Positions 29,995-41,659 of a stretch of 64,000 nt of DNA are shown piece after piece; the first letter of the stretch is position 1; every line of letters begins with the position of its first letter. The stretch spans positions 6,647-70,646 of the forward strand of contig JAHEBH010000002.1 of assembly GCA_024642335.1 (NCBI GenBank), read 5' to 3'. The position numbers and the translations under genes were made by a program. Source of the stretch: Erythrobacter sp. (GTDB lineage Bacteria > Pseudomonadota > Alphaproteobacteria > Sphingomonadales > Sphingomonadaceae). The notes below the pieces were generated by a model. That model was given only the letters and a program-made list of their open reading frames with translations, was not told the DNA's origin and did no database searches.

Positions 29995-31026
29995 TTAGTC
30001 CTGAACTGCCAATCCATGCTTCTTGATGCAATGGCGCAGCTGATCATAGGACAGGCCCAGCGACTTTGCCGTCTGGCGCTGGTTCCAGCGGTTGGCCCCT
30101 AAGGCATACTCTACGATGGCGCGTTCATGCGCATCGACCGCAACCCGCAGATCGTCGACATTCGAGAAGTCGCTTTCGACCGGAGCAGGATTCGCAACGG
30201 TATCCTTTGCGGACGCAGGGCGCGGTGCCTCCGGGACCGTGGCGATCGGCTTCCATGGCGAATCGAACGGGTCAAACACCGCATGCGCAATGGGCCGGGA
30301 CCAATCATCCCAACGATAGACCGCGCGTTCCACCACATTGCGCAATTCTCGCACATTGCCCGGCCAGGGATGGTTCTCGAGCGCCTCGGCAATGTGGGTG
30401 GCATAGCCGGGCCACTCCTCCCAGCCCAGTTCGGCAGCCATGCGCCGCCCGAAATAGTCCGCCAGAACCGCTATATCGCCTTCGCGCACGCGCAAGGGCG
30501 GCAGGGTAATCACCTCGAAACTCAGCCGGTCGAGCAAGTCGGCACGAAAGCGCCCTTCCTTGGCCAGTTTCGGCAAATTCTCGTTGGTCGCCGCGACGAT
30601 GCGAACATCGACGCGTGTAGGACGGGATGAGCCGATGCGCGTTACCTCGCCATATTCGACAGCGCGCAACAGGCGTTCCTGCGCGCCCATGGACAGCGTA
30701 CCCAGCTCATCGAGGAACAGCGTGCCCCTGTCCGCTTCCTCGAAACGACCTTCGCGCACTTTGGTGGCGCCGGTGAAAGCACCTGCTTCATGGCCGAACA
30801 GCTCGGCTTCGATCAGCGTTTCGGGCAGGGCGGCACAATTCATGATGACCAGCGGTTCCTCCCACCGGTCGGACAAGCGATGGAGGCGTTCTGCAATCAG
30901 TTCCTTGCCCGTTCCGCGCTCGCCGACCACCAGGACGGGGCGACGCATGGGCGCGGCGCGGCTGGCGCGTTCGACCGCATCGAGGAAGGCGCCCGACTGG
31001 CCGATGAACTGGTTCTCGCGCTCCAT
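29995..31026 (-). CDS. pspF: Sigma54-dependent activator PspF
   Basis: GERGTGKE, GAFTGA, LFLDE, DLLDRLS, WPGNVREL, C-terminal HTH; no N-terminal regulatory domain; divergent from pspA. Confidence 0.93.
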   Translation of the reverse strand: MERENQFIGQSGAFLDAVERASRAAPMRRPVLVVGERGTGKELIAERLHRLSDRWEEPLVIMNCAALPETLIEAELFGHEAGAFTGATKVREGRFEEADRGTLFLDELGTLSMGAQERLLRAVEYGEVTRIGSSRPTRVDVRIVAATNENLPKLAKEGRFRADLLDRLSFEVITLPPLRVREGDIAVLADYFGRRMAAELGWEEWPGYATHIAEALENHPWPGNVRELRNVVERAVYRWDDWSRPIAHAVFDPFDSPWKPIATVPEAPRPASAKDTVANPAPVESDFSNVDDLRVAVDAHERAIVEYALGANRWNQRQTAKSLGLSYDQLRHCIKKHGLAVQD

Positions 31027-31036
31027 GGCCAAGATA

Positions 31037-31071
31037 TAGTGAAAAACGCCAAGGTTTGGCAACAGTCACTA
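31037..31071. promoter_or_regulatory. Putative PspF upstream activating sequence
   Basis: Dyad TAGTGAAAAACGCCAA-ggt-TTGGCAACAGTCACTA, similar to the recalled enterobacterial psp UAS. Confidence 0.7.
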
Positions 31072-34771: not shown

Positions 34772-35119
34772 ATGCGGCCGCTGTGGGTGGCGGCAGGCCT
34801 GCTGTTCGTGGGCCTTGGCACGGTGGGAGCCTTCCTGCCGATCCTGCCGACCGTGCCGTTCCTGCTGCTGGCGACATTCTTCTTCGCACGCGGCAATCCG
34901 GCCTGGGAGCAGCGCCTGCTCAACCATCCGCGCTGGGGTCCGCCGCTGGTTGAATGGCGCACCCGCCGCGCCATTTCGCGCCGCGCCAAGATATCCGCAC
35001 TGGCAGCAATGGGCATGGGCGTGCTGGTCACTGCCCTCACCCTCGGCTTTCCGTGGTGGCTGCTGGTACTGGCGATTGTCTCGGTAACCGGCGGCTGGAT
35101 CTGGACGCGGGCGGAGTAG
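34772..35119 (+). CDS. YbaN (DUF454) family membrane protein
   Basis: GLGTVGAFLPILPTVPFLLLA..FFARG.P..EQRLLNHP. Confidence 0.88.
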   Translation: MRPLWVAAGLLFVGLGTVGAFLPILPTVPFLLLATFFFARGNPAWEQRLLNHPRWGPPLVEWRTRRAISRRAKISALAAMGMGVLVTALTLGFPWWLLVLAIVSVTGGWIWTRAE

Positions 35120-39394: not shown

Positions 39395-40012
39395 ATGTGC
39401 AACCTTTACCGCATGAAACAGAGTCGGACCGAGGTGGCGGATTTCTTTTCGTCCATTGCACAAGACTTACGTGTCGCTCCGGGCAACGACCCTGCCGAAA
39501 TCTATCCCGGCTATCCCGGCCTCGTGCTGGCTGAAGGACAGGTCCAGCAGATGGCATGGGGGTTCCCGCTTGCCCTCAAGGGAACGAGGGGTCAGCCGCT
39601 GAAGCCCAAGCCGGTCAACAATGCGCGCTCGGACAAGCTGGGCAGCCCCTTCTGGTCTGCCAGCTTCCGGGATCGGCGTTGCCTTGTGCCGGTATCCGAA
39701 TTTGCCGAGGCGCGTGGAGCCAAGGGCGCGAAGACGCGGACGTGGTTCTCGCTTCCCGATACGCCCCTCATGGCTGTGGCCGGTTTCTGGCGCGATACCG
39801 AAGAGTGGGGACCAGCCTTCACCATGGTCATGACCGATGCAAATGACGCTGTCCGGCCATTGCATGACCGCATGCCGTCGATCCTCGCTCCCGATGACTG
39901 GCAAACCTATCTCGGCCTTGATCCGCAAGCAGCGTTCGAGATCTGCCGGCCCTATGCCGGAGCGATGACGGTCTCGCACACAGACACGCCCTGGCCGGGC
40001 CGTCGCGGGTGA
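39395..40012 (+). CDS. SOS response-associated peptidase (SRAP/YedK family)
   Basis: N-terminal MCNLY, WGFP, NNARSD, RRCLVP...F.E, HDRMP. Confidence 0.92.
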   Translation: MCNLYRMKQSRTEVADFFSSIAQDLRVAPGNDPAEIYPGYPGLVLAEGQVQQMAWGFPLALKGTRGQPLKPKPVNNARSDKLGSPFWSASFRDRRCLVPVSEFAEARGAKGAKTRTWFSLPDTPLMAVAGFWRDTEEWGPAFTMVMTDANDAVRPLHDRMPSILAPDDWQTYLGLDPQAAFEICRPYAGAMTVSHTDTPWPGRRG

Positions 40013-40042
40013 CCGGATTGTCGGGAAGGCCTGTTCTTCGGG

Positions 40043-40089
40043 GAGGCGGGGCCGGGAGACTCCAGGGGACCCAGGATCGGCCCCGCCTC
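40043..40089 (-). other. Strong GC hairpin, candidate sigma54-dependent small RNA
   Basis: 12-bp perfect inverted repeat GAGGCGGGGCCG...CGGCCCCGCCTC around a 23-nt interior; no U-tract on either strand. Confidence 0.5.
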
Positions 40090-40120
40090 ATTCGAAGACT
40101 ACAGGGTACACACAATACTT

Positions 40121-40161
40121 TGCACAGCCCGTGCCAGTTTTGCGCATTCGCGGATTTCTGC
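40121..40161 (-). promoter_or_regulatory. Putative sigma54 promoter with conserved upstream 12-mer
   Basis: Minus strand GCAGAAATCCGC-N13-TGGCAC-GGGCT-GTGCA; same layout as 41619-41659. Confidence 0.6.
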
Positions 40162-40323
40162 GCAACACGATGGTTAAGGTGGCCTTACTGGCAGGCAGGA
40201 TTGTAAAAAAAGCCGACGTTTTTCGTTGTTTTCCGCACGCCCATCCGGGTACGCGCGCAGCAGGGACAGCTTGCTGTCCATCTGGCGAGGACGAAGGCGC
40301 GGATGCGCCTTCGCAAACAAGAT

Positions 40324-40400
40324 TGGCGCGCCCGGCAGGACTCGAACCTGCAACTCCAAGCTTAGAAGGCTCGTGCTCTATCCAGTTGAACTACGGGCGC
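40324..40400 (-). tRNA. tRNA-Arg (anticodon UCU)
   Basis: GCGCCCGTAGTTCAACTGGATAGAGC-A-CGAGC-CTTCTAA-GCTTG...GGTTCGAGTCC...CCA; 77 nt. Confidence 0.97.
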
Positions 40401-40459
40401 GTCGGGTCCGGTCCATAGCGGGCTTTGCGGCTATGGCAAATCAAGATAGGTTCGCTTTC

Positions 40460-41197
40460 ATGGATAGAAAGCCGCAACGTATCGAGGGGCACGAAGGCGG
40501 ACGCCGCCACTTCCGCTATTTCGATTATGTCATGGTGGCCTTCGTCACCATCCTCCTGCTGTCCAACGTGATCGGGGCCGGCAAAGTCTCCTTTGTCGAA
40601 CTGCCTGTGCTGGGCATTTGGGAATTTGGCGCAGGTATCCTGTTCTTCCCCGTTTCCTATGTGATCGGAGATATACTGACCGAAGTGTATGGATACGCCC
40701 ATGCGCGGCGCTGCATCTGGGCCGGGTTTATCGCGCTCGTCTTCATGGCCTTCATGGCTATGGTAGTGGTCGCCCTGCCCCCGGCGGCAAACTGGGGCGG
40801 GCAGGAAGCTTACGAGCAGGTTTTCGGGCAGGTGCCGCGTATCGTGCTGGCGTCGATCATTGCCTTCTGGGCAGGCGAGTTCGTGAATTCCTACGTCATG
40901 GCGCGGATGAAGGTCTGGACGAAAGGCAGGTTGCTGTGGACGCGGACCATCGGTTCGACCGTGGTCGGCCAAGGCGTGGACAGCGCCTTGTTCTATCCGA
41001 TCGCCTTTCTGGGAGCCTCGGGCTGGAGCACCGATCTGGTCATAACCGTGGCGCTCACCCAATGGCTGCTGAAGACGGGCTGGGAGGTGGTCCTCACGCC
41101 CGTCACCTACAAGGCTGTGTCTTTCCTCAAACGGCGCGAAGGCGTGGAAGTCTTCGATACGGACACCGACTTTTCTCCCTTCGCAAAGTCCTTGTAG
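40460..41197 (+). CDS. Queuosine precursor transporter (YhhQ/Vut_1)
   Basis: LLSNVIGAGK, FFPVSYVIGDILTEVYG, RIVLASIIAF..GEFVNS, RTIGSTVVGQGVDS; alternative start at 40433. Confidence 0.9.
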   Translation: MDRKPQRIEGHEGGRRHFRYFDYVMVAFVTILLLSNVIGAGKVSFVELPVLGIWEFGAGILFFPVSYVIGDILTEVYGYAHARRCIWAGFIALVFMAFMAMVVVALPPAANWGGQEAYEQVFGQVPRIVLASIIAFWAGEFVNSYVMARMKVWTKGRLLWTRTIGSTVVGQGVDSALFYPIAFLGASGWSTDLVITVALTQWLLKTGWEVVLTPVTYKAVSFLKRREGVEVFDTDTDFSPFAKSL

Positions 41198-41618: not shown

Positions 41619-41659
41619 TGCAGAGGGTGTGCCAGTTTAAGAAAATGGCGGATTTCTGC
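41619..41659 (-). promoter_or_regulatory. Putative sigma54 promoter with conserved upstream 12-mer
   Basis: Minus strand GCAGAAATCCGC-N13-TGGCAC-ACCCT-CTGCA. Confidence 0.7.

Follow-up and report, generated by a model that had tools for sequence, protein, structure and literature searches.

Several small RNAs (sRNAs) are known to be transcribed from sigma-54 promoters under the control of a response regulator, among them GlmY (GlrR) of enterobacteria and NrsZ (NtrC) of Pseudomonas. In Vibrio a two-component activator (LuxO) and sigma-54 likewise drive the short non-coding RNAs Qrr1-5, and in Desulfovibrio the small RNA Dv_sRNA2 has been reported as a target of the sigma-54-type response regulator DVU0679 (PMC3333781). 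Haft et al. (2006; BMC Biol 4:29, PMC1569441) described, upstream of proteobacterial PEP-CTERM genes, a 17-nucleotide (nt) motif ending in TTTACA, followed by a spacer (mean 62.8 nt, standard deviation 10.6) and a sigma-54 motif; such a promoter is normally followed by about 70 nt of leader, and the phylogenetic profile of the DNA motif matches PrsR, PrsK and PrsT exactly. The experimental support that we found for PrsR binding to this PEP-CTERM box is only indirect, and comes from a DNA-affinity-purified-chip (DAP-chip) study in which the PrsR-type regulator DVUA0057 of Desulfovibrio vulgaris enriched predicted PEP-CTERM targets (PMC3333781). The PrsK/PrsR two-component system is widespread in environmental proteobacteria, where it has been linked to floc and biofilm formation, and the targets proposed so far for PrsR are protein-coding PEP-CTERM genes only. 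The window analysed here is a stretch of 64,000 nt from a genome of Erythrobacter sp. (GCA_024642335.1, contig JAHEBH010000002.1, positions 6,647 to 70,646), and positions 40218-40012 of its minus strand carry an element that shares with the promoters of the PrsK/PrsR/PrsT regulon (PMC1569441) a sigma-54 motif preceded, at a distance of about 63 nt, by a 17-nt motif with (T)TTACA at its end, and that differs from them in its product, which appears to be a non-coding hairpin RNA and not a secreted PEP-CTERM protein. It is probably a single-copy, sigma-54- and PrsR-controlled gene of the Erythrobacteraceae for a non-coding RNA of about 80-100 nt that would act in trans.

That a real sigma-54-dependent RNA gene lies here is very likely, judging from the way in which promoter, upstream sites and transcribed region are conserved together. 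The GG and GC dinucleotides of the promoter are exactly 10 nt apart, the spacing proper to sigma-54 promoters; TGGCAC-N5-nTGCA shows zero variation across 23 aligned sequences of the genus and also stands upstream of 29 of 29 matches in other genera. On the minus strand the order from 5' to 3' is a tRNA-Arg(UCU) gene, a 66-nt repeat, the 17-nt box, TTAACCATCGT, GCAGAAATCCGC, the promoter and the hairpin, and the unit that is conserved comprises the 17-nt dyad, the TTAACCATCG box, a GCAGrAAwCC dyad, TGGCAC-N5-nTGCA, a structured RNA of about 80 nt and a C-rich tail. In all 29 loci read in other genera the dyad, the TTAAC/ACCATCG box and TGGCAC-N5-TGC stand ahead of the RNA with unchanged spacing. 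Within the genus, window positions 40175-40036 (140 nt) are 71-82% identical in each of the 24 other genomes sampled while the flanks diverge, and most of the hairpin is invariant or conserved in the 23-sequence alignment. The genome encodes rpoN (409.7 bits against a cut-off of 277), and neither a sigma-70-like promoter nor a canonical terminator was found on either strand within 39800-40500.

The distribution of the element was followed with a covariance model of the transcribed part (R1), applied with strict filters, so that its counts are lower bounds. Matches were obtained in at least 37 of 151 genomes of the bacterial family (36 of the 150 besides the genome under study) and in at least 29 of 112 genera, with one copy each, and a paralogue search of the genome itself returned the single copy only. 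An exact-pattern scan of 185,579 species genomes, one per species, gave 115 stretches; nearly all of the 80 listed bear Erythrobacteraceae names (Aurantiacibacter, Altererythrobacter, Croceibacterium, Erythrobacter, Qipengyuania, Citromicrobium, Pelagerythrobacter, Allopontixanthobacter and Porphyrobacter occur among them), a few belong to Novosphingobium, and four resemble chance matches (Streptomyces, a Dinoroseobacter metagenome-assembled genome, Tepidisphaeraceae and Elusimicrobia). Loose sigma-54-like matches, with two mismatches allowed, are not enriched in the window (34 observed against 38.8 expected), and it is for this reason conservation, not the motif count, that marks the element as something other than a product of chance.

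The transcribed region would begin near 40110, as judged from the -12 element, and is predicted to fold into a single hairpin of -46 kcal/mol (z = -5.3). Its structure was examined in an alignment of 98 matches (83 distinct sequences) that was fitted to the covariance model and consequently favours the structure; controls in which the pairing partners were slid use the same alignment. Among the 83 distinct sequences, standard pairs occupy 97.3% of the cells and compensatory changes on both sides occur in nine of the 17 pairs (54 cells), one covarying pair being read as GC 47, AU 23, GU 10, CG 2 and UA 1. None of 500 shuffles matched any of the measures of pairing or covariation, and slid partners gave 0-3 such pairs. 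About 43 cells are G-U or U-G, which on the plus strand would be A-C mismatches, and the model gives the minus strand 86.8 bits and the plus strand 33 bits; because of both, the RNA structure is assigned to the strand that carries the predicted promoter. The conserved unpaired motifs are GUACCC at the 5' end, two in the loop (UCCCC and GUCUCC) and two in the tail (CCUCCCC and CUUCCC). In most orthologues of several genera the hairpin is followed by a semi-conserved YCCCC-(G)AAAAUC tail, placed between core hairpin and terminator where a terminator exists; since this C-rich tail precedes the terminator in orthologues and occurs here at 40029-40015, the RNA probably extends to about 40012 or beyond. 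A terminator (GC hairpin with T-run, 30-56 nt after the core hairpin) is found in 14 of 92 orthologues by a strict test and in about 25 by eye. The element contains no conserved open reading frame (ORF): no Shine-Dalgarno sequence precedes the ATG at 40091, where most relatives have CGAACG, and the sole ORF through the hairpin, which is antisense to SRAP and 95 aa long, lacks a ribosome-binding site and contains an internal ATG that is not conserved.

The SRAP gene converges on the element, and one possibility is that in this genus the RNA acts in cis, as an unterminated transcript antisense to the 3' end of SRAP that would modulate this gene, with the hairpin serving also as a bidirectional terminator. 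The SRAP stop codon does lie 20-39 nt behind the RNA core in 24 loci, no canonical terminator is present on either strand, and the hairpin folds well on both strands. However, these 24 are among 91 distinct orthologous loci, and the other 67, with no SRAP within 1.5 kb downstream, keep box, promoter and hairpin; the wobble pairs fit the minus strand only; and there is no T-run after the stem on the plus strand. Action in cis is on this evidence quite unlikely, and might be an added effect in this genus and not the reason for the conservation. When gene strand is called by a codon-position criterion (GC1 > GC2), 64 of 86 loci have a convergent gene first downstream and 12 have one on the same strand as the RNA; the genes in these 12 are mutually unrelated, one of them being a UDG-family gene. 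Because the downstream genes vary in this way from locus to locus, the element is not read as a terminator of SRAP or as the leader of any one gene, and the comparison points instead to an independent non-coding RNA gene. A preliminary description of this DNA, made from the letters alone, had reported the TGGCAC-N5-GTGCA promoter, a 12-mer 13 nt upstream of it, the perfect 12-bp GC stem and the lack of an ORF led by a ribosome-binding site, all of which are indeed present. It had deduced from them a sigma-54-dependent sRNA, a deduction now strongly backed by the conservation of promoter, enhancer and hairpin as a unit, by the covarying stem, by the lack of a conserved ORF and by the varying neighbours; its own counter-scenario, a hairpin that is only a terminator for SRAP or tRNA transcripts, agrees poorly with these loci. 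The Rfam comparison that it proposed returned tRNAs only at gathering score, and no hit in 39600-40500 at E <= 10 overlaps the element; the homologue search showed that the element is not always beside tRNA-Arg, which is directly upstream of the box in some members of the genus and 1.5-4 kb away in others. The coordinates of the features are collected in Table 1.

Table 1. Features of the RNA locus and its surroundings (positions of the 64,000-nt window)
Feature	Positions	Strand	Basis or remark
Sigma-54 promoter TGGCAC-GGGCT-GTGCA (-24/-12 elements), TGGCACGGGCTGTGCA	40136-40121	minus	one mismatch to TGGCAC-N5-TTGCW
17-nt PEP-CTERM box CGTCGG-N6-TTACA (predicted PrsR site), CGTCGGCTTTTTTTACA	40218-40202	minus	64 nt upstream of TGGCAC; 22.2 bits
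TTAACCATCGT box between enhancer and promoter	40177-40167	minus	genus alignment
Promoter-proximal dyad GCAGAAATCCGC, centred about -45	40161-40150	minus	12-mer common to the promoter at 41619
Small RNA, conserved core (predicted)	40110-40035	minus	covariance-model match 40114-40035
Perfect 12-bp GC helix	40089-40078 with 40054-40043	minus	part of the small RNA core
Outer CUUCG/CGAAG helix	40097-40093 with 40040-40036	minus	extends the 12-bp stem
3' tail with second C-rich motif CCUUCCCGACAAUCC (40029-40015)	40034-40012	minus	orthologue listing
tRNA-Arg(UCU), upstream neighbour	40400-40324	minus	ARAGORN and Rfam
SRAP gene, convergent (context)	39395-40012	plus	Pfam SRAP, E = 1.9e-27

The enhancer of the RNA gene is identified, from its sequence and position, as a PEP-CTERM box, the predicted site of PrsR. 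Two members of the family that do not have the RNA, G104 (18 PEP-CTERM gene hits) and G046 (11), were taken as independent test genomes, and most of the PEP-CTERM genes read in them have the same motif upstream, together with a sigma-54 promoter. De novo motif discovery by expectation maximization (EM) on the regions upstream of 16 sigma-54 promoters at these loci (L209-L237), without use of the RNA sites, yielded TGTCGGAAATTTTTACA, at spacers of 62-65 nt (nine), 52-54 nt (four) and 42-43 nt (two); the classes differ by roughly one turn of the helix, which suggests an activator confined to one of its faces. The resulting matrix ranks the site of the RNA gene first in the window (the next scores 12.9 bits) and second in the 2.66-Mb genome. 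It is because this independently learned matrix gives so high a score, and because the spacing fits, that the site is assigned to the PEP-CTERM class. The family consensus of the box is TGTCGGrawwtyTTACA, a dyad TGTCGG-N6-TTACA whose window copy reads CGTCGG, and in 46 of 48 orthologous loci the distance from the first base of the box to TGGCAC is 80 or 81 nt. By the description of Haft et al. (PMC1569441), the window box has the expected spacer and a genome that encodes both prsK and prsR, and the accompanying PEP-CTERM protein gene downstream and exosortase (EpsH/XrtA) were not found. The genome encodes PrsR (TIGR02915, 673 bits against a cut-off of 502.6) with PrsK adjacent (TIGR02916, 323.6 bits against 300 over the C-terminal 335 aa read), and PrsR is present in 34 of the 37 RNA-positive genomes. 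The strongest box of the genome (27.0 bits; contig C9 ~34862-34878; L070:1063-1079) faces the other way, 30 bp ahead of the start codon of prsK, has no accompanying sigma-54 promoter and may reflect autoregulation. In a scan of the genome with the dyad matrix, this box and that of the RNA gene were the only strong sites. Taken as a whole, this points to PrsR as the likely activator of the RNA gene.

Under this reading, PrsR bound to its box would loop the DNA over the 64-nt spacer to the sigma-54 polymerase at the promoter, and the TTAACCATCG box and the GCAGAAATCCGC dyad may aid the looping. In the alignment of 23 genomes of the genus, AACCATC is invariant and TTAAC nearly invariant in the TTAACCATCG box, which is found in most other genera; some PEP-CTERM gene promoters (L209, L212, L215) also carry the GTTAACCATCGT box. 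The TTAACCATCGT box is a candidate site for an architectural, DNA-bending protein, and no convincing IHF consensus was seen by eye in the TTAACCATCG or 12-mer region. The genus consensus of the promoter-proximal dyad is CGCAGGAAwCCGC.

A different proposal concerned the activator. The preliminary description had tentatively placed the RNA in the PspF (phage-shock) regulon; on this view PspF, encoded 9 kb away at 29995-31062, would bind at 40201-40216, an A-rich stretch. In favour of this, 12 of 16 positions of the site agree with the psp enhancer, read on the strand opposite to the promoter, and the 64 kb contain exactly two copies of GCAGAAATCCGC, at 40161-40150 and 41659-41648, both placed 13 nt upstream of TGGCAC. 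The second copy belongs to the PspF-type promoter at 41619, on the same strand and 1.5 kb away, and the two promoters form a 42-nt direct repeat of 74% identity; pspF is moreover some 10 kb from the RNA gene in most genomes. The resemblance of the promoters does not extend to their enhancers and products: the promoter at 41619, a pspG-like remote PspF unit, has the enhancer TTGGTGAAAAATACCAA at 73 nt and drives a 42-aa peptide and a short PspC-domain protein, whereas the RNA promoter has a PEP-CTERM box at 64 nt and no ORF. Psp-type enhancers (GTGAAAAAnnCCAA) stand 73-74 nt from both psp-type promoters, and the regions upstream of these two score only -0.2 and 6.3 bits with the EM matrix. Five RNA-positive genomes (G079, G115, G122, G150 and G180, of which G115 is 100% and G122 99% complete) have no PspF over the curated cut-off, which is passed in 137 of 151 family genomes, and the linkage at 10 kb corresponds to conserved gene order. 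The 12-mer itself is uninformative about the activator because the dyad occurs in both promoter classes: about 22 PspF-type promoters from other Erythrobacteraceae have GCAGAATTC(C/T)GC 13 nt ahead of TGGCAC, and RNA promoters carry the weaker form GCAGGAAwCC. It is therefore a promoter-proximal element that PspF-type and PrsR-type sigma-54 promoters have in common, not a sign of any single activator. Of the proposed psp upstream activating sequence only the 12/16 match stands, the site being better read on the minus strand as the PEP-CTERM box, and membership in the PspF regulon is very improbable. As a separate observation, a near-palindromic GGCAGAATTC(C/T)GCC dyad at about -45 is highly conserved in PspF-type promoters of Erythrobacteraceae (41648-41659; L004, L008, L098, L150).

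The content of the genome gives the PEP-CTERM box a particular setting. The exosortase models TIGR02602 and PF09721 have no match in the genome, whose assembly is 98.7% complete in 105 contigs, and for the PEP-CTERM domain there is no TIGR02595 match and only a sub-threshold PF07589 match. This absence is unusual: exosortase is present in 131 of 151 family genomes, including most of the RNA-positive ones and a congener (G013), and the RNA elsewhere coexists with the protein regulon. An exact scan of the genome for sigma-54 promoters gave few credible ones and none that shares the box, and a scan at one mismatch was too noisy for use; the strict pattern TGTCGG-N6-TTTACA-N50-75-TGGCAC matched one of 401 genomes across the class and missed the present genome, which has CGTCGG. 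The RNA promoter appears as the sole predicted box-plus-sigma-54 promoter left in this genome. It could be imagined that it is a non-functional remnant, the decaying promoter and leader of a PEP-CTERM gene that no longer has its coding part: exosortase and PEP-CTERM proteins seem to have disappeared from this genome, and a leader of about 70 nt is the norm after promoters of this type. Such decay is nevertheless hardly credible, as the sequence and structure of the RNA are kept with compensatory changes in at least 29 genera, most of them with exosortase, a single orthologous copy is found per genome at a syntenic place, and the leaders of the PEP-CTERM genes examined are unlike the RNA.

An RNA under a PEP-CTERM box would, if the reading is true, add a post-transcriptional output to PrsK/PrsR, would explain why prsKR is retained in a genome that lacks exosortase and PEP-CTERM cargo, and would offer a compact and readily assayed reporter of PrsR activity, with one promoter and one RNA. 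The RNA is predicted to show C-rich, anti-Shine-Dalgarno-like motifs in the loop and 3' tail of its long and very stable hairpin, and would most likely act in trans by pairing with G-rich ribosome-binding regions of mRNAs, an idea that follows from the conserved unpaired parts being C-rich. The 'cuckoo' type of sRNAs, CcsR/alpha-r14, comprises alphaproteobacterial C-rich anti-Shine-Dalgarno RNAs with CCUCCUCCC loops. The present RNA resembles it in exposing the motifs UCCCC, GUCUCC and CCUCCCC, which could pair with ribosome-binding sites, and differs from it in having one long hairpin plus a tail and no Rfam match to those families at E <= 10. In comparison with Qrr, GlmY, NrsZ and Dv_sRNA2 there is no similarity of sequence or structure, and activator and signal are different; the RNA is furthermore single-copy and most of its orthologues have no canonical terminator. 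No family of Rfam 15 matches the element, at gathering score or at E <= 10 in 39600-40500, and searches of full texts found no paper that connects a small RNA with PEP-CTERM or PrsR, nor any on sigma-54 sRNAs in the bacterial family. By these comparisons the RNA represents a new RNA family and would give a known regulatory system an output of a new kind; it would add a well-defined RNA family (about 100 sequences with covarying structure) where very few sRNAs of the bacterial family have been described. A more speculative extension, which we regard as possible and hold only tentatively, is that in Erythrobacteraceae PrsK/PrsR, as an envelope and exopolysaccharide sensor, signals partly, or here solely, through the RNA, a post-transcriptional arm of the PEP-CTERM/exosortase regulon that would have outlived the loss of exosortase and cargo and would control other genes (surface, exopolysaccharide or metabolic) by masking of ribosome-binding sites.

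Several observations weigh against the PrsR-controlled, trans-acting RNA. The support for the RNA gene, its promoter, its dependence on PrsR and the RNA ends comes from sequence comparison, and the absence of exosortase and PEP-CTERM genes depends on the fragmented assembly described above. Of the 92 orthologues tested, those in the genus of the window have no terminator hairpin with a T-run, and the transcript, with no canonical terminator, might run antisense into the SRAP gene. A scan by RNAduplex against 2,346 heuristic gene starts found no conserved target complementarity; the top predicted target, the start region of pntA (-46.6 kcal/mol, z = -5.4), keeps pairing of at least 8 bp in two of four genomes of the genus and is a lead only. 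The box near prsK is present in only five of 21 genomes checked (the present one and four of 20 others). PrsR over the cut-off is missing from three RNA-positive genomes, namely G079, G180 and G082; the best PrsR match of G082, whose genome was searched except for 10.5 kb, reaches 392 bits against 502.6, and G079 (97% complete) and G180 (76%), which together make up genus g56, have no PrsR, PrsK, exosortase or PspF, their only activators being NtrC, NtrX and an orphan response regulator. The element of g56 could possibly be a relic after recent loss of prsKR, as the loci of G079 and G180 are near-identical.

These genomes bear on the question of which activator is at work, and the RNA could be a sigma-54 sRNA with another one, either the orphan response regulator (477 aa, next to pntA on contig C53) or NtrC. 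The activators of the present genome are the NtrC/NtrX pair, PspF, PrsR with its adjacent PrsK and this orphan. An orthologue of the orphan (64-83% identity) occurs in 37 of 37 RNA-positive genomes, which counts on the same side as the points above, and g56 keeps RNA, box and promoter. Against the orphan, it has GSFPGA in place of the sigma-54 contact motif GAFTGA, its presence tracks phylogeny in that all close relatives have it, and G104 has PrsR and many box-plus-sigma-54 promoters and no orphan orthologue at E <= 1e-100. Against NtrC, the PEP-CTERM box does not resemble the consensus of NtrC sites. Control by either of the two is accordingly rather unlikely, and PrsR is kept as the preferred activator. 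Orthologues of the orphan at E <= 1e-100 were counted in 113 of 151 family genomes; its gene (contig C53 70895-72325; L071:2396-3829) is divergent from a small membrane ORF and pntA. Relatives start pntA at ATG (MRIAVLKE or MKIAVLKE), where the present genome has CTT (contig C53 ~70600-70625; L071:2100-2125) and apparently uses an upstream in-frame ATG (MGGLRIAV).

Other sequences around the boxes may be mentioned. The third-best box of the genome (21.4 bits; contig C28 ~78427-78443; L238:2130-2146) is found at a distance of 8 kb from the window. The gene about 100 nt downstream of it encodes a secreted protein with a twin-arginine translocation (Tat) signal and DSDPND repeats, and no well-spaced sigma-54 promoter is evident. 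Many genera, that of the window not among them, have a recurrent (C)TTGCCAAG palindrome 30-45 nt ahead of the box (L048, L052, L055, L057, L059, L060, L063 and others). The interval from tRNA-Arg to the box contains, at 40252-40317, one copy of a dispersed repeat (about 66 nt); since many scattered copies of it, with 80-100% identity, are found in genomes of the genus, it is classed as an element resembling a repetitive extragenic palindrome (REP) or a miniature inverted-repeat transposable element (MITE).

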